Position numbers and translations under genes: made by a program. A stretch of DNA of 64,000 nucleotides from positions 676 through 64,675 of IMG/VR virus record IMGVR_UViG_3300024279_000007. One strand, 5' to 3'. The stretch is from a virus. Every line of letters begins with the position of its first letter. The first letter of the stretch is position 1. The notes below the pieces were generated by a model that was not told the origin of the DNA, searched no databases, and saw only the letters and a list, made by a program, of their open reading frames with translations. Shown here piece after piece: positions 3,266 through 47,030 of the stretch.

Positions 3266-3761
3266 TCCGTGGGTGTTGCTCGGCATCGTGCTTGCCTTCG
3301 CCGGGTCTAACGCGTGGTCATTCCATGAAGGCAGGCATTACTCCACTATCTCAATCGAAGCTGGACAGAAGCAGGCGGCTGACAAGGCTGCGGCGGAAGC
3401 GAAGGCCAATGCAGAGATTGATTATGGTGTCCAGCAGGAACTGGCTCTGGAGCAACAACGCCATGAACTTCTCTCTGAGACGCATCACAACCTTGTGGTC
3501 GAAGCGATCACCAAAGAGAAAGTCATACGCCAGCAACAGCCGCCCGTGGCGACTGGTGGCGCTATTGACTGCAATACCCCTTCTGGCACTTTCCGGGTGC
3601 TACTCGATTCCATCAGAGCCAGCAACAAGGGTGCCGCCCCAGCCACCGGCGCAGGTGATGGTGCCGTGTCAGGCGGCAACGGAACCAGCGGACCCGTCGC
3701 CGGAAGCGACGCAGTTCGCACTGGACAGCACAGCATGGACCCTCTCGACGTGTCGAAATGA
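3258..3761 (+). CDS. i-spanin (Rz-like)
   Basis: N-terminal TM helix plus coiled coil, directly after the endolysin. Confidence 0.8.
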   Translation: MLNPWVLLGIVLAFAGSNAWSFHEGRHYSTISIEAGQKQAADKAAAEAKANAEIDYGVQQELALEQQRHELLSETHHNLVVEAITKEKVIRQQQPPVATGGAIDCNTPSGTFRVLLDSIRASNKGAAPATGAGDGAVSGGNGTSGPVAGSDAVRTGQHSMDPLDVSK

Positions 3762-8522: not shown

Positions 8523-11500
8523 ATGGCCGCTAACCCGTTCGAACAGGTGAACGTCCCGCCGCTTCCGGACACGATGCCCGATACCAGCATGCCGGTCGGC
8601 AATCCCGCGCACCCGGCTGAAGCGAATCCGTTTGCTTCATCCGACATGCAGATGGTGCAGGATGACAGCCCGAATCCGTTCGCGGCACCGGACATGATCG
8701 AAGCACCGAAGAAGCCTGTCCAGCAGTCGGGTGCCATCATGGCAGGCGTGCGCAGCGCAATCCCCGGTTTGCAGGAACAGCTTGGGGAAGCGGAAAGCTA
8801 CGGTGGCCGTGCGGCACGGCAGGCTGGCTACAACCAGATTGCCGACTGGCTGGAGTCGCACAGCAAGTCCAACCTCGATGAAGTCAAGGCTGGACAGGAC
8901 GCGAGCAACACACTGCCCGCTGACGCTGGTCTCGGCTCGCGCGCCGCCTACGGGATTGCGCAGGGCATCGGCCAGACTGCCGTGGTGGGTGGTGGCGGTT
9001 TCGCAGCCGGTGCTCTCGCGGGTGGCGCAGCCGGTGCCGCGTTCGGTGGTGTCGGCGCGATTCCCGGTGCCATCGCGGGTGGCCTGCTGGGTTGGACCAT
9101 CGCCAACGTGGGCGCGCTCCCGGCACTGATGGGCTTCTCGCAGGCAGGCCGCACGGCCAGCGCTGTGGCTGACCAGAAGCAGAAAGAAGGCCTGTCGGCT
9201 GAACAGGCCAATGCACAGGGTCTGGAAGCGGGCGCGGTCACCGGCACGGCGGCAGGCGCGCAGGGCGCTGTCCTCGGGCTGCTGGGTCCGCTCGGCAAGG
9301 TGGTCGGCAAGGCCAAGGCTGGCTCGGTGGTGGAGTCGGCACTGAACGCCACGGCTGGCTCGATTGCCAAGGACACTGCCAAGGCAGCGGCAGTCGGCGC
9401 GGCAGGCAACGTTGCCGTCACGGCAGCAGCGCAGGGCGTGGAACAGCAGTATGGTGTCGGTGACGGTATCTCGGGTGAATCGTTGCTCGAATCCGGCCTG
9501 ATCGGCGCGGGCATGACGGGGCTGATGCACGGTCCCGCGCAGTACGCCCGCACGTCGAAACTCCGCAGCGCAACCGGCCCGCTCGCGGACCCGACCGCTT
9601 CCGTCGAAGACCGGCAGCGCGCCGCCGCCGCAGCGGTCGCAGCCATCGCCACGCGCGACACGCAACTCGCGCAGGACTTCGGCATCTACTCCGCTGTCCA
9701 GATCGCGAAGGGTCTGCCGGTGGACGTGACCGCCGACCATGCCTACACCGCGTTCGCACAGGACGCAAAGGACAAGGCTGACCGTTATGCCAAGGCGGTC
9801 GCTGGACAGGTGACAGGCGAGAAGCAGCCCGGTAACGGCAACAGCTTCGTACCGGGTCAGGGCGACCGCACGTTCGGCGCGGCACCGGAAGACAACAGCC
9901 TTCGCCCGACTGGCGCAGACACGTCCATGCAGGGGCAGGATATCAACCGCCCGATGCCGGACAACCTCGATGTGCGCGGGATCATTGAGCGTGAGGCTCC
10001 CCCGGTCGCACCAACACCAATCGACCCGAACGACCCGCAGGGCACGCTGAACGCCATCCATGAGTCCAACGTCGCTGACGATGCGTTCCTCGACCGCGCG
10101 CTGGCCGCAGCCCATGAGACGGGCGTGCTCACGCCGGAAGCAGCGGAAGCCCCGCTGTCGCCGGAAGCCCTGCGTCCTGACCAGCAGTTCTACAACGACC
10201 AGCGCGATCAGGCTGGCCGCGACGTGGCCTTCCAGCAGGCTGAACAGCAACAGGGTACACCGCCCGCCGTGCCGGACGATGCGTTCGCCCAGCGGCAGGC
10301 CGCGCTCGCGGCAGAGGCCGACCGGCTGCGCCAGCAGGGTCACGTGGCGGGTGTCTACGATCAGGCCATGAACGCGCCCGACCGGGCCGCTGCGGAAGGG
10401 CAGTCCCGTGCCGACGCCTACACGGCTGAACAGGCGGCACGCCGTCAGGCCGCGCATGAGGCATCGGTCGCACAGGACACCAGCGAGACGGCAGCGCGGG
10501 TGGCCGGTGAAGGTGCTGAACAGCCGACCGCGATGGCACAGGCGCTGCAACGCGCGGGCGTGCGTCCGGCTGAACAGGGGAACGCCCCGGCACGGCCAGC
10601 GGAGACGCCTGCGGAAAAGGCGCAACTGTCGCGCCTTGGTCACCGCAACCCCGCGAGCCTTCGCACGGACGAACTCGGTCGGCTGGTGGAGTCGCACCCC
10701 GATCCGGCAGTCCGCGCCGCTGCACAGGCGGTGCTCGGGGTACGCCGCAACCGCGCCATCGCGGAAACCCCCGATTCTACTGTTCAGCACACCGGGGAAA
10801 TGACCGGCAATCAGGATTTCCGCCGTCCGGGACCGGTCAACGATGAAGCGGGGATTGAATTTTCCCGCCAGCGGCGCGAATCCGGGGCTGCTGACGGGCT
10901 GGAGACGCCCCGGACGCCCGAAGGTAGCGCCCCGGTCGAAGCAGCCCCGGAAATCGCCCCGCTGAAGCGTGCGCTGGACGCCGATGCGGTCAAGGCGGGT
11001 GAGAAGTCGGCGGGTGACTTCGAACACGTCACGCGTGACAGCCTGCCTGAACAGCGCACGGCGGTAGAGAACGGTGTGAAGGGTGCCACTACCCTGTCGA
11101 AGTCGGATTACGATCTGGTCACGAAGCAGGCCGACCTGTTCAACAAGAAAGTCGTGCTGTTCAGGCAGCGCAACGGTCGGCCCGGTGAACGGCTGGACGG
11201 CGCGGTGCTCCCGGAAGACGGCAACACGATCTACCTGAACGCGGACGCGGCGGGCGCTCACCATATGGTGGTGGTCGGCCACGAACTGGCGCACCAGATG
11301 GAGAAGGACGCGCCGCAGGTGTACAAGGCGCTGAAGGATGCGCTGTCCTCGCAGACCAAGGGTGGGCTTGAACGGTTCACGCAGTATTACGGTGAGACGG
11401 GCAACCTGAAGAACCCGAAGTTTCGCAGCCGCATGACCCATGAGTTCATTGCCGATCTGGTGGGTAACCGGGCCGGTGAACTGAACACGTGGCGTCAGGT

Positions 11501-14500
11501 GTTTGCGAGCGTGGACAAGGGCAACCGGAGCATGGTCTACCGGCTGGCGGATTATGTGTCCCGTTTCATCGGCAAGCTGATGAACAACGAGAAGTTCAGG
11601 AAGTTCGCCACCGATGACATGGTGAACAGCCTGAACGACACGCGCACTGCGGTGCGTCGTGCGCTCGCGGATTACGCCAGTTCGCAGGGCATGGCCCGTA
11701 TGCAGCATGAGGCTGAACAGCTTCGTGCCGCGAAGGCCAATCGTGGTGAAGAAGGTCCAAAGCTGGTGGAGCCGGTCAGGTCAGACCGTGTGGTGCATGA
11801 TAGACTTACAGATCGGCTGCATGACCGCGCTTCCCCTGAACAGGTGAAGCCGCGTGAACCGGAGCCGACACAGGGCACGCAGCGCATGGAGCAAAGCGGT
11901 ACGCCCCGCACTGAACGTGTCCGCGAATCTGGAGAACGCGATGAAAGGACCACAACGGCAGGACAACAGAACGAAGGAACAGGCGCTGGCAGAACTGCAC
12001 CGGGAAATGGAAGTCGGGATGAGCCAACAGCCAGACCAGACGGACGGCTTGAACTCACCCACTGGTCAGGCAAAGCCGGTCTCCAAGACCTCGACCCCGC
12101 CAAGCACGGCACCGGCCTCAAAGGCGCAGAGCTAAAGCGGCGCGACCGTGACCCGGACAGCTACGTCAACCGGACGTATTTCGGACTGAACGTGGGTGAA
12201 CCGGGCGGGTACGTGAAGGAGTCCGGGCTTGGCCAGCACAAGTACACGACCTCGGTTGAACCGTCGAAGCTGTACGACATTGGCGCTGACCCTGCCGGAC
12301 TGTATCCGAAGGGTGATATCGGCCCGTATGCCGACCGACTCTCGATGTATGAGAAGGCGATCAGGGATGCAGGCTATCAGGGTTACTGGACAGCACACCC
12401 TTCAATGGGCAAAGTTGCGGCAGTGTTTGACAAGCTGCCGGTGGAGCATGCAAATGAAAGGACCACGCAAACCGCAGAACCAGCGCTCGCAAGATCAGCA
12501 GAGCGCAACGAAGAACGAGCCGCCGTTGAACAGACCGCCCGCGAACCAGCAGCACTGGGACGACGTGACGGCGGAACTGAAGGCGAAGTACCCGGATACA
12601 CCCGACGCAGCTTGGGAAGCGATGGGAATGTAACGGTCAACGGTCGCACGGTCAAAGGTGAACAGGTCAGCCCGACACCTGAACGCCGTGCGGCACTTCA
12701 GGCTCGCGGAGTCAGTTCGCCTGACTACGTGCAAGTCTCTGGCAAGGAAGGCGCACAGGCTTTCCACGACGCCATCCTCGAATCAAAGATGCAGAACCCC
12801 CACGGGGCCTCTGTCCACGTCTACACGCCGGAAGAATACGCAGAGATGCGCACCTTCCTGACCGACGACGGCAAGGCAGGGGTGGCCATCAAGCCGGACG
12901 GCGATATCGTCTCGGTGTTCAACACGCCCGGTAGCGGCATCAAGGGTCTGACGGTCTCGGCACTCGACCTCGCTGTCCAGCATGGCGGTACGAAGCTGGA
13001 CGCCTTCGACACGGTACTCCCACACCTGTATGCGAAGTCCGGCTTCAAGGCTGTGGCGCGCATGCACTGGAATGACGAGTACAGCCCGGAAGGCTGGGAC
13101 AAGGGGCAGTTCGAACAGCACAACGGCGGCGAGCCTGACGTGGTGTTCATGGCCCACGATCCTGAAGGCGTGGCTGACTACCAGCCGGGTGACGGCAAGC
13201 TGGTCACCGACTACGATGAAGGCGTGCGCTTGCAGGACGAAGCTGTTCAGGATGCTCACCCGTCCGAAGGGGAAGCAGGCACCGCCAACCCGCTGTCCAG
13301 CGAACCCTCGGTGCGCCGGTCAGGGGAACGGGCTAACTACCTCGGCCCGATGGACCCGGCACAGGAAGCCTCGGCCCGTGCGGTCGGCATGTTCGCCCCG
13401 AAGAAGACCTACAAACAGGTCATGCAGGAAGCCAGCAAAGACCTCGGCAAGAAACTCCAGCAGGGTATCGCTGACCAGTTCGCGCCGATCCGGGAACTGG
13501 ACGAGAAGGCTTACTGGCTGTCGCGGCTGTCCAAGGGTTCGGACGGCGCACTTGAGGCAGCGCTGCTGTATGGCGCACCTGTGATCCGCGATGGCGTCTA
13601 TGACGTGGACGTGCATGGCAAGGGCTTTGCGAAGATCATGGCCGATCTGGACGGCGAGCATAACCGTTTCCTGCTGTGGGAAGCGGCGCATCGCGCGGAA
13701 GACCTGAAGGCGGAAGGCCGGGAGAACCTGTTCACTGATCAGGATATCTCGGCACTGAAGACCCTCGACCAGCCGGACGCCATGCACCCGAACCGCGCGC
13801 AGAAGTTTGCGCAGGCGCGGCGCGAGTATCGTGACTTCAATGAAGCGATGCTCAAGATCGCACGGGACTCCGGGATTCTCTCGGATGAAGACTACAGGCT
13901 GTTCAGGGATCAGGCCTATGTACCGTTCTACCGCGTCATGGAAGGGGGCGACGCGGCGGTCCCCGGTGGCGGCAAGTCAGCGGGGCTGGTCAACCAGTAT
14001 GCGTTCAAGAAACTGAAGGGGGGCACGTCCAAGCTGAACGAAGACCTTCTGGTCAACGTGCTGGGTAACTACTCGCACCTGCTGGGCGCAGCAGCCCGCA
14101 ACCGCGCCGCCAAGGCAACGATGGATGCAGCGGAAGCCGCTGGCATCGCACATCAGGTTCCGGCAGCGGCGGCAGGCAAGGGCAGCGTGGCCGTCCGCGA
14201 TGGTGGCAAGGAAGTGCACTACTACATAGACGATCCGCACCTGCTGGCGGCGGTGTCGGCCATGAGTCGGCAGGTACCCGGCTGGATGAAACCGCTGTCC
14301 ACGTTCAAGCGCGTGCTCACGCATGCGGTGACAACGATGCCGGGTTTCAAGGTCCGCAACCTGATCCGTGACTCGATCAGTGCGCTGGCTGTGGGCGACC
14401 TCTCCCCGAACATCGCGAAGAATCTGGTGGAAGGGGCGAAGGGTACGTCGAAGAAGTCCCAGACCTACGCGTCAATGCTGGCCTCGGGCGGCATCATCCG

Positions 14501-15848
14501 GATGGGTTCGATGCTGGAAGGCAACGAGGCCTCGCGGGCGCACCGGCTGATTGAGAAGGGGGTACCGGCCCACACGATTCTGGACAGGGGCATGACCGAC
14601 AAGCTGTTCGGTCAGGCGCGTGACCTCTACCATGCCTATCAGGAACTGGGGGACCGCTCGGAAAACATCAACCGGGCTGCGCTCTACCAGCAACTGATCA
14701 AGCAGGGCAAGTCGCACGCGGAAGCCTCATTCATGGCGCGTGACATGCTGGACTTCTCGATGCAGGGCAACTGGCCGGTTATCCGTTTCCTCACGCAGTC
14801 TGTGCCGTTCATGAATGCCCGCATCCAAGGGCTGTACAAGCTGGGCAAGGCAGCGGCATCGAACCCGCTTCGCGTGGGCGCGGTGGTCGGCTCCGTCATG
14901 ATGGCCTCGCTGGCACTCCAGTGGGCCTATCAGGATGATCCCGACTGGAAGAATCGCGAAGACTGGGACCGGGATAACTACTGGTGGTTCAAGATCGGCG
15001 GCACTGCGTACCGTATCCCCAAGCCGTTTGAAATCGGCGCGGCGGGCACCATCGCGGAACGCACGGCTGAACTGATGATGGACAAGGAAATGACGGGCAA
15101 GCGGTACATGGGGCGCGTGGTAGACATTCTCGGCCAGCAGTTCGCGCTCAACCCGACGCCGCAGATCGTCAAGCCACTGGTGGACGTGTACGCGAACAAG
15201 GATGCCTTCACGGGCAGGCCGATTGAGAATCAGGCCATGCAGGCGCTCCAGCCGGAAGACCGGTACGACGCGCACACCAGCATGACCGCACGCTTTCTCG
15301 GCCAGTTGGGTCTGCCTGATCCTGTTCAGTTGATTCAGGGCCGGTATCAGCAGCTTTCCCCTGTCCAGATGGAGTCGCTGCTGCACGGCTACTTCGGCTC
15401 GCTGGGGGCGCTGGCGCTCGGGGTCACGGATGCGATTGCACGGCCTGCAACCGGGCAGGCGTCGCGTCCGTCCATGACGCTGGCAGACCTGACGGGCAAC
15501 GCAGCGGAGACAATCGGCACGAAGCCCAGCCGCTATGTCTCGGCCATGTACGACAATCTCCAGCACATCGAACAGGCTTACAACTCATACCACACCTACC
15601 TGAAGACCGGGCAGGTGGACAAGGCGCGGGCGGAACTGGCCGACAACCGGAACCTGATCGCGTCGTACAGCATGGCGGAAGCCGCCAAGCGGACTATGGG
15701 CAAGCTGTCTGTTCAGGAGAAGCGGATCGTCAATGATGAATCGCTGTCGTCAGCGGAGAAGCGGGATCAGCTAACCGCGCTCACGAAGAAAAAGAATGCG
15801 CTGGCGCAGAAGATCGCGCAGCGTGAACTTGACGTGTCACAACGCTGA
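8523..15848 (+). CDS. Giant ejection / polyvalent protein (2441 aa): zincin-like peptidase, ART-like, GNAT-like and LPD38-like domains
   Basis: HELAH (HExxH) ~11280; THWS...LDP...GTG...RTYF ~12050-12400; FLTDDGKAGVAIKPDGDIVSVF...KLDAFDT.LP.LY...GF ~12850-13150; YRIPKPFEIG ~15010. Confidence 0.75.
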   Translation: MAANPFEQVNVPPLPDTMPDTSMPVGNPAHPAEANPFASSDMQMVQDDSPNPFAAPDMIEAPKKPVQQSGAIMAGVRSAIPGLQEQLGEAESYGGRAARQAGYNQIADWLESHSKSNLDEVKAGQDASNTLPADAGLGSRAAYGIAQGIGQTAVVGGGGFAAGALAGGAAGAAFGGVGAIPGAIAGGLLGWTIANVGALPALMGFSQAGRTASAVADQKQKEGLSAEQANAQGLEAGAVTGTAAGAQGAVLGLLGPLGKVVGKAKAGSVVESALNATAGSIAKDTAKAAAVGAAGNVAVTAAAQGVEQQYGVGDGISGESLLESGLIGAGMTGLMHGPAQYARTSKLRSATGPLADPTASVEDRQRAAAAAVAAIATRDTQLAQDFGIYSAVQIAKGLPVDVTADHAYTAFAQDAKDKADRYAKAVAGQVTGEKQPGNGNSFVPGQGDRTFGAAPEDNSLRPTGADTSMQGQDINRPMPDNLDVRGIIEREAPPVAPTPIDPNDPQGTLNAIHESNVADDAFLDRALAAAHETGVLTPEAAEAPLSPEALRPDQQFYNDQRDQAGRDVAFQQAEQQQGTPPAVPDDAFAQRQAALAAEADRLRQQGHVAGVYDQAMNAPDRAAAEGQSRADAYTAEQAARRQAAHEASVAQDTSETAARVAGEGAEQPTAMAQALQRAGVRPAEQGNAPARPAETPAEKAQLSRLGHRNPASLRTDELGRLVESHPDPAVRAAAQAVLGVRRNRAIAETPDSTVQHTGEMTGNQDFRRPGPVNDEAGIEFSRQRRESGAADGLETPRTPEGSAPVEAAPEIAPLKRALDADAVKAGEKSAGDFEHVTRDSLPEQRTAVENGVKGATTLSKSDYDLVTKQADLFNKKVVLFRQRNGRPGERLDGAVLPEDGNTIYLNADAAGAHHMVVVGHELAHQMEKDAPQVYKALKDALSSQTKGGLERFTQYYGETGNLKNPKFRSRMTHEFIADLVGNRAGELNTWRQVFASVDKGNRSMVYRLADYVSRFIGKLMNNEKFRKFATDDMVNSLNDTRTAVRRALADYASSQGMARMQHEAEQLRAAKANRGEEGPKLVEPVRSDRVVHDRLTDRLHDRASPEQVKPREPEPTQGTQRMEQSGTPRTERVRESGERDERTTTAGQQNEGTGAGRTAPGNGSRDEPTARPDGRLELTHWSGKAGLQDLDPAKHGTGLKGAELKRRDRDPDSYVNRTYFGLNVGEPGGYVKESGLGQHKYTTSVEPSKLYDIGADPAGLYPKGDIGPYADRLSMYEKAIRDAGYQGYWTAHPSMGKVAAVFDKLPVEHANERTTQTAEPALARSAERNEERAAVEQTAREPAALGRRDGGTEGEVPGYTRRSLGSDGNVTVNGRTVKGEQVSPTPERRAALQARGVSSPDYVQVSGKEGAQAFHDAILESKMQNPHGASVHVYTPEEYAEMRTFLTDDGKAGVAIKPDGDIVSVFNTPGSGIKGLTVSALDLAVQHGGTKLDAFDTVLPHLYAKSGFKAVARMHWNDEYSPEGWDKGQFEQHNGGEPDVVFMAHDPEGVADYQPGDGKLVTDYDEGVRLQDEAVQDAHPSEGEAGTANPLSSEPSVRRSGERANYLGPMDPAQEASARAVGMFAPKKTYKQVMQEASKDLGKKLQQGIADQFAPIRELDEKAYWLSRLSKGSDGALEAALLYGAPVIRDGVYDVDVHGKGFAKIMADLDGEHNRFLLWEAAHRAEDLKAEGRENLFTDQDISALKTLDQPDAMHPNRAQKFAQARREYRDFNEAMLKIARDSGILSDEDYRLFRDQAYVPFYRVMEGGDAAVPGGGKSAGLVNQYAFKKLKGGTSKLNEDLLVNVLGNYSHLLGAAARNRAAKATMDAAEAAGIAHQVPAAAAGKGSVAVRDGGKEVHYYIDDPHLLAAVSAMSRQVPGWMKPLSTFKRVLTHAVTTMPGFKVRNLIRDSISALAVGDLSPNIAKNLVEGAKGTSKKSQTYASMLASGGIIRMGSMLEGNEASRAHRLIEKGVPAHTILDRGMTDKLFGQARDLYHAYQELGDRSENINRAALYQQLIKQGKSHAEASFMARDMLDFSMQGNWPVIRFLTQSVPFMNARIQGLYKLGKAAASNPLRVGAVVGSVMMASLALQWAYQDDPDWKNREDWDRDNYWWFKIGGTAYRIPKPFEIGAAGTIAERTAELMMDKEMTGKRYMGRVVDILGQQFALNPTPQIVKPLVDVYANKDAFTGRPIENQAMQALQPEDRYDAHTSMTARFLGQLGLPDPVQLIQGRYQQLSPVQMESLLHGYFGSLGALALGVTDAIARPATGQASRPSMTLADLTGNAAETIGTKPSRYVSAMYDNLQHIEQAYNSYHTYLKTGQVDKARAELADNRNLIASYSMAEAAKRTMGKLSVQEKRIVNDESLSSAEKRDQLTALTKKKNALAQKIAQRELDVSQR

Positions 15849-27548: not shown

Positions 27549-27959
27549 TTAGTCCAGCGCGCGGCGGCGCGACTTGCCAGCGCCTTCCACGATAGCCTTG
27601 ATGGCTTCATACACCTTGACACGGACCGCTGCGGACTTCTTCTCCAGACCGCTGATCGACTCGGCACCCGTGTCGCTGATGATGGCGATGGCCTTGTCCT
27701 GATCATCGTCCGACTCGATCTTCGACGCGAGTTCGCGAATCTGGTCAACCGTGTAGTCCGGGCCTTCGTCCGCACCTTTCTCGTCCTTGCCTTTATCGTC
27801 CGCACCCTTGCGGCTACGGCCACCCTTGCCGGACGATTCCGCGCCCTTGTCTTCGGCTACGACAGCGGCGGCTCTCTCTGCCGACAGGCCAAGGAAGGCC
27901 GATGCAGCCTTGAACACTTCAGCTTGGCTCTCGCCCGTGAAGGTGATGGAAATGGTCAT
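27549..27959 (-). CDS. Hypothetical protein of APSE-type replication modules
   Basis: Low-complexity linker then YTVDQIRELA...GAESISGL; usual position upstream of DUF2800. Confidence 0.7.
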   Translation of the reverse strand: MTISITFTGESQAEVFKAASAFLGLSAERAAAVVAEDKGAESSGKGGRSRKGADDKGKDEKGADEGPDYTVDQIRELASKIESDDDQDKAIAIISDTGAESISGLEKKSAAVRVKVYEAIKAIVEGAGKSRRRALD

Positions 27960-28008
27960 GGTAGTTCTCCAGTTATATGGAATTGATTACAGCTTAGGGA
28001 AGTAGCGC

Positions 28009-28170
28009 TCAGGTGCGCAGGGTAGTCTGCTGTCCAGACGGATCAGCAGGCATGGGGGTACGCGGGCAGTCAGCAGCCACGGAGACAAACATGGCACGCA
28101 GGATGATGCCCCACGCAATGAAGGCGACGGCGAAGGAGATAGCCCACGTCGTGGGTCTGATCTTAAACAT
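28009..28170 (-). CDS. Small membrane protein (53 aa, MFKIRPTTWAISFAVAFIAWGIIL...)
   Basis: Single TM helix; read manually, a different frame from the ORF-track entries here. Confidence 0.5.
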   Translation of the reverse strand: MFKIRPTTWAISFAVAFIAWGIILRAMFVSVAADCPRTPMPADPSGQQTTLRT

Positions 28171-28227
28171 AGGTTCAACTCGCACAGGTTCAGGTTCACA
28201 GGTTCAAGGCAGGCGCTGCACCTATCC

Positions 28228-28880
28228 GCAGCTTTAACGTGGCTGGTCGCAACTCCAGCTACTCCACAGTATGCTGTTCAGCACATCGGACGCACTGAAC
28301 CTCGCCGTGGTATGAGTAAGCGTTTTATCCGCTGCCCTACGCGATGTTCGACCGGGCAACCCCAGCAGCCATAGTCCGTACTACCACGTGACTACCCGCC
28401 AGTCTTACGCTTGCTACTTATTCACCGCACCGACTGTTTCTCAGTACAGCGCCTGCATTGGAGCACACGACTTGCGCCGGTGGAACAGGTAATCAACCCG
28501 CCCCACGCTAAACCGTTGCTTACGCTCCCCAGTGACTAGCTGGACAGCCGCAACTGCCGTCTGGACCGGGTGGTCAAACCCGGCTCATGTGCTCCAATTC
28601 AGGCCCGATCCATTCAATGCTGGTCTGCCCAGCGATATCAGTGCGCCTTGGTGTATTCCGCTCGACGGGTAGGTTGAAAGCCTTCCGTACCGGGTTAATC
28701 AGCGCGACGCACTTACGGCCTGTCACCTGAACGGATCGGTAGAAGGGCGCGGTCTGGCTTCCGCCGTGTCCCGCCAGCAACTGAATGCCGTGCCCTTTTA
28801 TCGAAGCGCTCTGACACTCTGCCGGGGCCGAAGCCCCGGTTTCGTGTTCTCTCCCGCCCCTGCTACTTCACGTGCTGCTG
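28228..28880 (-). ncRNA. Candidate large structured non-coding RNA (~650 nt)
   Basis: No credible ORF; end-to-end closing helix, 11-13 bp long-range helices, G-U pairs on the minus strand, UUCG and GNRA loops, own promoter. Confidence 0.7.
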
Positions 28881-28886
28881 ATGTAC

Positions 28887-28914
28887 ATACTACACGATCC
28901 GTTCAGACATGCAA
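28887..28914 (-). promoter_or_regulatory. Putative promoter of the ncRNA, TTGCAT-16-TAGTAT
   Basis: Predicted +1 near 28880, matching the 5' strand of the closing helix. Confidence 0.55.
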
Positions 28915-29286
28915 GCATGAAATCAACTGATCGACGCGCTCACGCAACATGACCAGACGATCCTCGGCATGCGTGATCACGGAGACGACGCGCGAGACGC
29001 CCGGTTCCGGTGCCGGTGGCTGCGCCGTGCCCTGCTGGCTGACCGACCGTTCTTCCATGACCGTGGCCAGCCGTACTTCCAGTGCACCGACTGTCAGGTC
29101 CAGTCCGTTGACGACAGCGTTGAGCCTGTTCAGCGCTGCTTCCATCGGGGTCTGGGGGCGCACGTCGGCGTTGAGGTTGGTCACTTCCGCGTCTATGTGC
29201 ATCTTCTCCTGTTGATCTGCGCGCATCTTCTCTTTGAGTCGGCTGTAGCTTTCTCTGGCGGTCTGTCCGCTGTTCATTGTGTCCAT
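28903..29286 (-). CDS. Hypothetical coiled-coil protein
   Basis: GGAG RBS; first gene behind the 29339-29367 promoter. Confidence 0.7.
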   Translation of the reverse strand: MDTMNSGQTARESYSRLKEKMRADQQEKMHIDAEVTNLNADVRPQTPMEAALNRLNAVVNGLDLTVGALEVRLATVMEERSVSQQGTAQPPAPEPGVSRVVSVITHAEDRLVMLRERVDQLISCLHV

Positions 29287-29338
29287 GTGGTTCTCCGGGT
29301 GTACGTGCTGCGCTTGTGTGGGTGCTGCTGATAGTCAT

Positions 29339-29367
29339 ATCTTAGGAAATCACGGTTGCGCTGTCAA
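29339..29367 (-). promoter_or_regulatory. Sigma70 promoter TTGACA-17-TAAGAT with a second CGTTGACA copy 20 bp upstream
   Basis: TGTCAACGT direct repeat at 29362 and 29382; divergent control region. Confidence 0.8.
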
Positions 29368-29460
29368 CGTTAAATTTTCCTTGTCAACGTGCTGCTGTTC
29401 AGCTACATTCTGTCTCACGGCAAAGGGCCGTCCTAATGACGAATAACCGGAGAACGTAAC

Positions 29461-33172: not shown

Positions 33173-33308
33173 GTGACGTTTGTGACGTTTCTTTGGGTAA
33201 GTGTAGTTAGTGACGTTAGTGACGTTTATACCCCTAAATCATAAAACTCTCTATACGAGCGCTGGCAGGAAAAACCTCTAAAAGGGTAAGAAACGTCACT
33301 AACGTCAC
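33173..33308. repeat. Iteron-like origin element downstream of the primase
   Basis: GTGACGTT at 33173, 33182, 33210, 33219; AT-rich spacer; inverted copies at 33292 and 33301. Confidence 0.8.
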
Positions 33309-44371: not shown

Positions 44372-44685
44372 CCGAAGCACTGGCCCGCCAGCTACAGGCG
44401 CTGCGACAGCCGACCGTCTCACGTGGCCGCACAGTTGTCACGCTAGGCCCGTGGACCAACGGCCACGATGAACAGGTGGCCATCGTCACTCATGTGTATG
44501 GCTGTGGCCTGCCGGGTGATCTGGTGAACCTGCATGTCTTCGTTGATCTGGCGGAAACGCTGATCGCGAGTGAGGTTCCGTGGTATCCGACACGTGCTGA
44601 TGCTGAACAGGCACTGGCCGCGAATGCAGAGAAAGCCAACATCACAGGCGGCGCGGTGTGCTGCTACTTTCCTGACAGGGTGTGA
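44356..44685 (+). CDS. Hypothetical protein
   Basis: GR.V...AIVTHV...VNLHVF.D pattern; coupled to the portal gene. Confidence 0.6.
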   Translation: MSEALTEALARQLQALRQPTVSRGRTVVTLGPWTNGHDEQVAIVTHVYGCGLPGDLVNLHVFVDLAETLIASEVPWYPTRADAEQALAANAEKANITGGAVCCYFPDRV

Positions 44686-47030
44686 ACATGCAAGGCGAAA
44701 CCCTTGATCCCGTGGCCAAAACCACAAACTTTGCTGAAGTGGAGTCGCAGCTAGAACGACTGCAACTGTTCAGCGCCATTCTGGTCAAGCGTCGCAACGA
44801 AGCACTTGACGCACGCGCCGCGTCCGGCACCGAACGCCGCTGGCTGGACGACCTCGACAGCTATCAGGGACGCGATGCCAGCACGCGCCGCGTGGACCTG
44901 ATGGACACGGTAAGCGGCACGCAGGTGGCGCAGCGTCGCACGGCAGGCGATACCACGACCGGCAAGCGCTCCACTGTCTTTGTCCAGTTGACGCGGCAGA
45001 AGACCAACGCCTGTGCGGCACGCGCCGCCGACATGCTGTTCCCGACAGACGACAAGAACTGGGGCATCAAGCCCACTCCTGTCCCTGAACTCATGGAAGC
45101 GCTGAAAAATGGACGGAACCAGCCTTACATTGACCCACAGACTGGCCAGCCCCTGCCGCATCCGGACCCTGAACAGCAGCAGCCTGCTCCGGATGGCAGC
45201 ACACCAGCGCCGGGTGCGGGTCAGGTCGTTACCTATGCCGACCTCGCTGCTGAACAGATGCAGATCGCGCAGCAGAAAGCCACTGCGATGGAGCGTGAGA
45301 TTGATGACCAGCTAACCGAATGCAGCTACAACGGTGAAGGCCGCAAGGTGTTGCAGGACGCGGCGAAGCTGGGCACGGGTGTGCTGAAGGGTCCGACTGT
45401 CCACAACGTTATCAAGAAGAAGTGGACGAAGAAGTCAGGTGCTGTGCACATGCTGGACATGGTGCAGGAAGTCAAGCCACAGACGTACCGTGTCGATCCG
45501 TGGAACTTCTACCCGGACCCGACCTGTGGCGACGATCACCAGAACGGCGCATACGTATTCGAGCGTGAGTTCCTGCCCGGTCGTTCACTGGCCAAGTATG
45601 CGAAGGTGCCGGGTTACAACTGGCAGGCGATTGCGCTGTGCCTCGCTGAAGGCCCGCAGCACGTACACCAGTCGGGCACCTACACGGACAACGTGCGTGC
45701 CGGTGAACTGGCCTACAACCAAGGCAACTATCAGGACAAGCGCTATGAACTGTGGACGTACACGGGTGACGTGGACCGTGACGACCTCGAAACGCTGGGC
45801 CTGTGCCCGCCTGAAGACGCGGCAACGTGGCTGGTGACGTTCAGTGCAGTCATCGTGATGTGCAACAACCGCATCATCAAGGCCATGCTGAACCCGCTGG
45901 ACACGGGTGACTTCCCGTATGACGTGTTCCACTGGGAGCGTGTGGACCTTTCGCCGTTCGGTGTCGGCGTGCCGTATCTGATGCGCTATGCACAGCGCAC
46001 CCTGAACAGCGCATGGCGGGCGATGCTCGACAACATGGCGCTGTCCAGCGGGCCACAGATCATCATGAACCGCAAGGCCGTGGTACCAGCCGATGGTAAC
46101 TGGGAACTGACGGCGCGCAAGCTGTGGTTCATGCAGGGCGACGCGGACGACGTGCAGAAGGCGTTCTGGGTATTCGAAGTCGCATCGCACCAGCAGGAGA
46201 TAGCGGCAATCATTGACCTCGCGCAGAAGTTCGCGGACGAGGAAACCAGCCTGCCACAGATCGCACAGGGTGAACAGGGCACGGCACCGGACACGGTGGG
46301 CGGCATGTCCATCCTGATGAACAGTGCGAACACGGTGCTGCGCCGGATCGTCAAGCAGTATGACGATGAAGTCACGCGTCCGCATATCCGTCGCTACTAC
46401 GACTGGAACATGCAGTACAGCGAGAAGGAGGAAATCAAGGGCGACTTCGAAATCGACGCCCGTGGTTCTTCTGTGCTTATTGTGCGTGACCAGATGGCGC
46501 AGGGTCTGGTGAACGTGGCCAACATGGCGAAAGACCCGGACTACGCGATCTTTGTGGACAAGCAGAAGCTGTTCCGCAAGATGGTGGAGGCCCAGCACAT
46601 CACACCTGACGACGTGATGAACACGCCTGAACAGATCAGCGCCAATCTCGACGCACAGAAGAACGCGCCGCCGCCGACTGATCCGCGCATTGAATCGGCC
46701 AACGTCAAGGCACAGAGCGACCAGAACATCGCGAAGCTGCGTGCCGACAGTGAACAGTCCTTCAGCGAGAAGCAGTTGCAGATCGCACGCGACAGCCATG
46801 CAGCGGAAATCTCCAAGCTGCAACTCCAGCGTGAACTGGCCATTCTCGAATACGCCAACCAGCAGAAAATGCAACTGACGGATATCAAGGCAGAGCTTCT
46901 GCAACTCGCCATGAAGCAGGGCCATGATTCTGTCCAGTCGCAGGCAGAGCGTATGACGCAGGCGGCACAGCAGAAGGGCAACCCGGCTGACGCTACCCCG
47001 CAACTTGACGCAACTGAGGCTTACGTATGA
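44682..47030 (+). CDS. Portal protein (podovirus type)
   Basis: 782 aa after terL; C-terminal coiled-coil barrel; GDFEIDARGSS. Confidence 0.9.
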   Translation: MNMQGETLDPVAKTTNFAEVESQLERLQLFSAILVKRRNEALDARAASGTERRWLDDLDSYQGRDASTRRVDLMDTVSGTQVAQRRTAGDTTTGKRSTVFVQLTRQKTNACAARAADMLFPTDDKNWGIKPTPVPELMEALKNGRNQPYIDPQTGQPLPHPDPEQQQPAPDGSTPAPGAGQVVTYADLAAEQMQIAQQKATAMEREIDDQLTECSYNGEGRKVLQDAAKLGTGVLKGPTVHNVIKKKWTKKSGAVHMLDMVQEVKPQTYRVDPWNFYPDPTCGDDHQNGAYVFEREFLPGRSLAKYAKVPGYNWQAIALCLAEGPQHVHQSGTYTDNVRAGELAYNQGNYQDKRYELWTYTGDVDRDDLETLGLCPPEDAATWLVTFSAVIVMCNNRIIKAMLNPLDTGDFPYDVFHWERVDLSPFGVGVPYLMRYAQRTLNSAWRAMLDNMALSSGPQIIMNRKAVVPADGNWELTARKLWFMQGDADDVQKAFWVFEVASHQQEIAAIIDLAQKFADEETSLPQIAQGEQGTAPDTVGGMSILMNSANTVLRRIVKQYDDEVTRPHIRRYYDWNMQYSEKEEIKGDFEIDARGSSVLIVRDQMAQGLVNVANMAKDPDYAIFVDKQKLFRKMVEAQHITPDDVMNTPEQISANLDAQKNAPPPTDPRIESANVKAQSDQNIAKLRADSEQSFSEKQLQIARDSHAAEISKLQLQRELAILEYANQQKMQLTDIKAELLQLAMKQGHDSVQSQAERMTQAAQQKGNPADATPQLDATEAYV

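Follow-up and report, generated by a model that had tools for sequence, protein, structure and literature searches.

A large structured RNA shared by two soil phages and a lineage-specific upstream complement to one of its strands

Introduction

Can the promoter from which a large phage RNA is transcribed decide how that RNA folds? The question is raised by a locus in a 64,000-nt stretch of viral DNA (the window), which is nearly all of the 65.9-kb IMG/VR virus record IMGVR_UViG_3300024279_000007. A minus-strand (leftward) early or replication operon begins there at a predicted promoter, P1, and passes through a gene for a 127-aa protein into a gap of ~660 nt that contains no credible open reading frame. 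Beyond the gap, the operon continues with a 136-aa gene (27549-27959), a 229-aa gene, and genes for a DUF2800/PD-(D/E)XK nuclease and a Gp2.5-like SSB. A divergent promoter serves a Cro-like gene and a D5-type primase gene to the right. The original prediction held that the gap encodes a large RNA and that a short segment upstream of it (X) could capture one strand (Y) of a helix within the RNA, so that the fold would depend on promoter choice and on translation of the upstream gene. Here we ask whether the RNA is real, whether X can pair with Y, and whether that pairing is likely to act as a switch.

Results

The gap encodes a structured RNA

The minus strand of the gap has a predicted fold energy of -282.7 kcal/mol (z -5.3), compared to -244.8 kcal/mol (z -3.0) for the plus strand. 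A homologue of ~520 nt is present in a second viral record, IMGVR_UViG_3300046690_000263 (L002), with an nhmmer E value of 2.8e-41 against the window copy. The primases of the two phages are 67% identical, and the RNA of L002 is flanked by homologues of the same two genes, one being the homologue of the 127-aa protein (L002:2962-3258, 35% identity, E 6e-12) and the other 58% identical. RNAalifold analysis of the two copies gave 132 consensus pairs, of which 22 are changed on both sides and ~20 are kept through G-U pairing. When the pairing partners were slid by 1-3 columns, 0-2 compensatory pairs were found instead of 22. Covariation drawn from just two sequences is suggestive and not statistically rigorous. 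The limits of the RNA (Table 1) were set by helices that join its 5' and 3' ends. No match to Rfam 15 was found in the whole window at gathering thresholds, Rfam searches of the window and L002 copies at E values up to 10 gave chance-level matches only, and no tRNA or tmRNA genes were found. The RNA is clearly real and previously uncatalogued.

Two other readings of the gap were rejected. The window and L002 are distinguished there by many indels of lengths not divisible by three, and a pattern of identical blocks interrupted by indels of any length rules out a coding function. A plus-strand RNA ending at the terminator-like site at the 5' edge was rejected on the basis of fold energy, the pairs that depend on G-U, the direction of the genes and the presence of the UUCG loop in the minus-strand RNA. 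No credible plus-strand gene runs into that site.

Several features within and next to the RNA deserve mention. The strand UCGUGUGCUCCAAUGCAGGCGCUGUAC (28444-28470) is complementary to 28585-28604 (repeat I1) and also to 28205-28221 (repeat I2), and the two complementarities have 10 nt in common. L002 could likewise form each of these pairings; in the consensus fold, 28208-28222 is paired instead with the 5' end of the RNA. This strand may be part of a junction that can branch-migrate, or may take part in several alternative states. Immediately 3' of the RNA, GGTTCA (UGAACC in the RNA) occurs four times at a spacing of 14-15 nt (28168-28207), and the matching place in L002 (2409-2425) has two copies of GTTCA. 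This repeat is the core of a genome-wide CTGAAC octamer. An identical 11-mer that includes the octamer, TGCTGTTCAGC, is found inside the RNA (28272-28282) and in the spacer of the rightward promoter (29393-29403). A stretch of ~250 nt 3' of the RNA is not conserved between the window and L002. A 61-aa open reading frame on the minus strand (27990-28172) sits between the RNA and the 136-aa gene, and was rejected as a conserved neighbour on finding no similarity to the L002 open reading frame at the matching place.

Table 1. Positions of the features discussed, in window coordinates unless marked otherwise
Feature	Position	Strand	Remarks
P1, promoter (predicted)	29339-29367	-	TTGACA, 17-nt spacer, TAAGAT; would drive the 127-aa gene and read through into the RNA
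127-aa gene, function unknown	28903-29286	-	From the list of open reading frames; just upstream of the RNA; UGA stop at 28905-28903
P2, putative internal promoter	28887-28914	-	TTGCAT (28914-28909), 16-nt spacer, TAGTAT (28892-28887)
X, upstream arm	28895-28906	-	RNA sense CUGAACGGAUCG; in P2 spacer, over the UGA stop of the 127-aa gene
ATCAGCAGCAC element	28872-28882	-	Lies 4 nt past the P2 -10; candidate operator or initial transcribed motif
C(UUCG)G tetraloop hairpin	28821-28840	-	5' edge of the RNA; plus strand scores terminator-like
Structured RNA, ~620 nt	28208-28829	-	Between 5'-3' closing helices; homologue L002:2434-2955 (-)
Z, conserved block	28799-28811	-	GAGCGCUUCGAUA; unpaired in consensus; second, weaker alternative partner of Y in both phages
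Y	28727-28738	-	RNA sense CGAUCCGUUCAG; 5' strand of native helix Y:X'; perfectly complementary to X
X', native 3' partner of Y	28606-28616	-	RNA ...UGAAUGGAUCG; 10-11 bp with one G-U
Inverted repeats in ORF 8523-15848	8804/9148, 10881/10940, 11043/11157
Inverted repeat in ORF 44682-47030	46465/46653

Y has a native partner inside the RNA

Y is paired with X' in every minimum free energy (MFE) structure and in the two-phage consensus. In the latter (columns 116-125/241-250), the helix has two compensatory changes (U-A to A-U and C-G to G-C) and a one-sided change mediated by G-U. Since it covaries, we consider Y:X' a genuine helix, as had been proposed. Contrary to the proposal, it is not the longest helix of the RNA: the helix 28451-28470/28585-28604, which Y:X' directly abuts, has arms of 20 nt.

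A further partner of Y is predicted in folds of the nascent chain, in which the conserved block Z pairs with Y in the window (28799-28811 with 28729-28741) and in L002 (2920-2930 with 2850-2860). Z reads GAGCG(C/G)UUCGAUA, and its pairing with Y would lengthen the stem of the best-conserved domain. In L002, Z:Y is nearly iso-energetic with Y:X', and Z:Y offers no covariation to judge by. Y is placed at a junction where it could pair with any of several partners.

X is an exact complement of Y and lies in a promoter-like sequence

Direct reading and a repeat finder both confirmed that Y (CTGAACGGATCG) and X (CGATCCGTTCAG) are 100% complementary over 12 nt, with 156 nt between the arms. X resembles X' (10 of 12 positions match) because both complement Y. 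The placement of X is also as first described. The stop codon of the 127-aa gene falls inside the arm, and X takes up 12 nt of the 16-nt spacer that separates TTGCAT from TAGTAT in the predicted promoter P2, ending ~14 nt upstream of the likely P2 start. X is therefore upstream of any start from P2 yet within the P1 transcript, in which the order is X (28906-28895), Y (28738-28727) and X' (28616-28606), and transcripts from P2, if it is a promoter, could not form X:Y. A ribosome terminating at the stop codon would cover X, as the original prediction stated.

This arrangement could have been selected. X might have evolved together with P2 such that read-through RNA from P1 is trapped in X:Y while it is being transcribed, with the native junction helix blocked, the active form arising only from P2 transcripts or when a terminating ribosome stands over X; this would be the original prediction recast in kinetic terms. 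The exclusion of X from P2 transcripts and its overlap with the stop codon make the placement suggestive of such a device. We regard this alternative, whose other evidence is taken up below, as unlikely, albeit worth serious attention.

P2 was not called in a consensus promoter scan, owing to a -35 that agrees with the consensus at only 3 of 6 positions. P2 and the sequence that follows it do align with P1 of the window and with P1 of L002 (TTGACA-17-TAGGAT). The alignment includes CTTG.. at the -35, a TA...T hexamer, ATC(A/C)GCAGCAC a few bases after the hexamer, and then AGC.GGG.GCGG.A.A.AA.AC. We observe, then, a promoter-like copy between the 127-aa gene and the RNA, and from the alignment it resembles a P1 promoter and leader that was duplicated, inserted there and has since diverged. 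The resemblance of P2 to a real paralogue of P1 is in keeping with a selected device. However, the downstream element that the two have in common points the other way: since P1 and P2 both carry the GCAGCAC element, co-regulation seems likelier than alternative use.

The ATCAGCAGCAC element that follows P2 is also present after the P1 -10 (29322-29332), and its core is in the spacer of the rightward promoter (29389-29397). L002 has ATCCGCAGCAC and GTGCTGCTG at the matching places. Direct repeats of the GTGCTGCTG/ACGTGCTGC type are found at 28872-28880, 29322-29330 and 29389-29397, and also at 29303-29311. They occupy +5 to +15 of P1 and P2 as well as the rightward promoter spacer, and they are kept in L002 (~3300 and 3366-3374). 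They are a candidate operator for the Cro-like protein or another early regulator.

The upstream complement is missing from the related phage

L002 lacks the whole segment of ~70 nt that bears P2 and X. The stop codon of its upstream gene (UAG, 2964-2962) is 7 nt before the first hairpin of the RNA, and no other upstream sequence in L002 is complementary to its own Y, the best duplex being -15.4 kcal/mol. Conservation of the complementarity in homologues, which had been proposed as a check and whose failure was to count against the prediction, was thus not found in the sole homologue available. Taken literally, this outcome goes against the switch, but the comparison is a weak one, confounded by the location of X inside the missing segment. 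The absence of both X and P2 is what co-evolution of the two would predict, but it is trivial given that X is inside P2, and the two phages lend a selected device no support from conservation. L002 shows that the RNA can work in a read-through context without any X-like device.

Searches for additional relatives covered the RNA and its neighbours. The 127-aa protein had no match in Pfam or PHROG. A homologue, P0002, is 91% identical with an identical C-terminus and is encoded on a contig of 66,064 nt. Nothing was found by blastn against plasmids and phages, by tblastn of the 127-aa protein against phages, or by a search of viral and metagenome contigs for loci related to the 127-aa, 136-aa, DUF2800, primase and P0002 proteins. 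With the primase alignment as query, viral contigs yielded L002 only, metagenomes yielded only loci that were distant or short and lacked the RNA, and bacterial genomes yielded nothing. DNA-pattern scans for conserved blocks of the RNA recovered the L002 contig and three chance matches only.

The repeat is locally unusual but has counterparts in the window

When the 100 nt upstream of the RNA were subjected to dinucleotide shuffling, a perfect complement to the RNA of at least 12 nt appeared in 3 of 400 trials (p ~0.0075), a value that favors a selected device. In the real genome, 11 of 632 segments of 100 nt (1.7%) have a perfect complement of at least 12 nt in the adjacent 645 nt (p ~0.017). 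Distinct perfect inverted repeats of at least 12 nt within 400 nt number 10 in the window, compared to 2.2 +/- 1.5 in shuffled sequences. Such repeats are thus ~4-5 times commoner than in shuffles, and the origin iterons at 33182-33300 account for part of the excess only. Three of the 10 lie in the replication-origin iterons near 33.2 kb, and several others are inside large open reading frames (Table 1). The existence of ~10 comparable repeats argues against selection of this one. A short-word BLAST of the 100-nt upstream segment against the window gave, at other places, two matches of 14 nt, two of 13 nt and two of 12 nt. X:Y does not stand out by duplex energy, and many pairs of upstream and RNA segments are equal or better. 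The X/Y repeat is locally unusual (~1-2%) and is unremarkable once the manner of its finding is allowed for.

A different origin for the repeat would be at the level of DNA. The arms could be inverted sites for a protein, perhaps related to the CTGAAC octamer, that causes looping or represses P2. Each arm starts with CTGAAC. This hexamer is the core of the octamer CTG(A/G)ACAG, which is strongly over-represented (155 exact octamers in the 64-kb window, with 130 CTGAAC and 82 GTTCAG). X is also located in a promoter spacer. However, neither arm matches the octamer in full (7 of 8 positions), and the covariation of Y and X', with its G-U pairs, is of a kind compatible with RNA, so that Y is explained at the RNA level. 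The octamer was rejected as the cause of the repeat on the grounds that the shared hexamer accounts for only half of the 12 nt. We consider a DNA-level element very improbable.

X:Y is predicted in nascent but not in full-length transcripts

We modeled read-through transcripts starting at 28925, 29000 or 29332. In thermodynamic predictions for such transcripts ending before X', X:Y forms at P 0.96-0.998. When X' and the next domain are included, with the same starts, Y:X' has P 0.98 and X:Y has P of at most 0.007. In P2-type transcripts, Y:X' has P 0.986. In these predictions, the proposal that read-through RNA forms a competing helix is supported for the nascent chain and not for the full-length RNA. 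The broader proposal, that the fold depends on promoter choice, is not supported: long and short transcripts share the same predicted full-length fold, with P(Y:X') of ~0.98 in each. With that fold shared, the promoter could matter only through a kinetic trap.

Is such a trap plausible? X:Y has 12 perfect base pairs and extends to ~21 bp with a bulge and internal loops in the flanks. Counting these flanks, its local stability exceeds that of the native Y:X' (-27.8 compared to -22.3 kcal/mol). Forcing X:Y in the full-length RNA costs +6.7 kcal/mol for the transcript starting at 28925 and +4.2 kcal/mol for that starting at 29332. In the former, re-pairing mainly involves X', Y and the leader, along with some short stretches close to the 3' end. 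In the latter, re-pairing also reaches 28634-28742 (enclosed by Y:X'), 28389-28418 and part of the upstream coding region. A gap of 4-7 kcal/mol above the MFE is within model error for RNAs of 700-1100 nt, and a switch based on a kinetic trap may be possible. The strength of X:Y before X' emerges, its local advantage and the small gap all speak for a selected trap. Against this, the equilibrium fold is identical for both transcripts, and X' should readily displace X by branch migration, since it lies directly against the long A:B helix.

X:Y might instead be a processing site. A double-strand-specific RNase could cut X:Y in read-through mRNA, as at phage RNase III sites, thereby separating the upstream mRNA from the RNA or destroying read-through copies. 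The extended duplex of ~21 bp and its energy fit this idea, as does the fact that X:Y forms only in transcripts that contain X. But just 12 bp are contiguous, which is short for RNase III, whose typical substrates are longer than that. In addition, cutting Y would destroy a conserved helix, and the site has no counterpart in L002. We find it hard to believe in processing at X:Y.

Discussion

We think that the 12-nt complement is real but is, somewhat more probably than not, a lineage-specific by-product with at most a transient co-transcriptional effect, and not a selected switch. The mechanism first proposed is coherent in physical terms, but the analysis found no sign of selection for it. 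In the history we propose, a copy of the P1 promoter and leader, ~70 nt long and since diverged, would have come to separate the 127-aa gene from the RNA in the lineage of the window and not in that of L002, and the spacer of this copy would be complementary to Y by chance. During read-through from P1, X and Y would be made before X', and X:Y would be predicted to form first. Once X' and the downstream domains had been made, X:Y would be displaced, and long and short transcripts would end in the same fold. This order of folding and the displacement come from thermodynamic prediction, whereas the match of X to Y, the helix Y:X', the P2-type copy and its lack in L002 are observed. The more elaborate picture, in which a phage RNA with its own promoter is shielded from read-through by a fold-back arm placed in the promoter spacer and over the upstream stop codon, strikes us as rather doubtful.

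The closest known system in terms of logic appears to be the fold-back inhibition of IS10 and IS50. In these elements, the 5' arm of an inverted repeat is upstream of the element's own transcription start, and only transcripts that enter from outside fold back. The ribosome-binding site of the transposase gene is then sequestered, and experiments have demonstrated the effect on translation. Fold-back inhibition of read-through transcripts from these elements was reportedly the subject of work by Davis, Simons and Kleckner in 1985 and by Krebs and Reznikoff in 1986. Similarly, X is upstream of any start from the predicted P2 and inside the P1 transcript, and only read-through RNA carries both arms. 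In contrast, Y is a strand of a junction helix in a non-coding RNA and not a ribosome-binding site, being ~555 nt upstream of the candidate start at 28172. Furthermore, the equilibrium fold here is predicted to be unaffected by X:Y.

Other systems have parts of this logic. The lambda sib site mediates retroregulation at a 3' end, through read-through of a terminator and cleavage by RNase III. There too, the promoter of origin decides RNA structure and hence the fate of the RNA, whereas the difference here would be at the 5' end and the nuclease site is hypothetical. The hok mRNA forms metastable structures co-transcriptionally, and its alternative pairings are conserved and have been dissected functionally. 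As predicted for X:Y, a 5'-proximal helix in hok mRNA forms first and is replaced once its downstream partner has been transcribed. Unlike the hok pairings, the early helix X:Y is found in one lineage only. GOLLD, ROOL and other phage and prophage RNAs in Rfam resemble the RNA described here in being several hundred nucleotides long, multi-domain, phage-borne and of unknown function. They differ in that no Rfam model matches this RNA, which is located between genes of an early or replication operon.

The useful results as they stand are negative or collateral: selection of the complement is not supported, and the RNA that it touches is a genuine, uncatalogued structured RNA common to two soil phages. 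If fold-back at X:Y did act as a device, then the fold of a large non-coding RNA would be decided by the promoter it came from and by whether the upstream gene is being translated. Fold-back logic has so far been documented mainly for transposase mRNAs, and a working X:Y would extend the inhibition known from insertion sequences to the folding of a large structured RNA.
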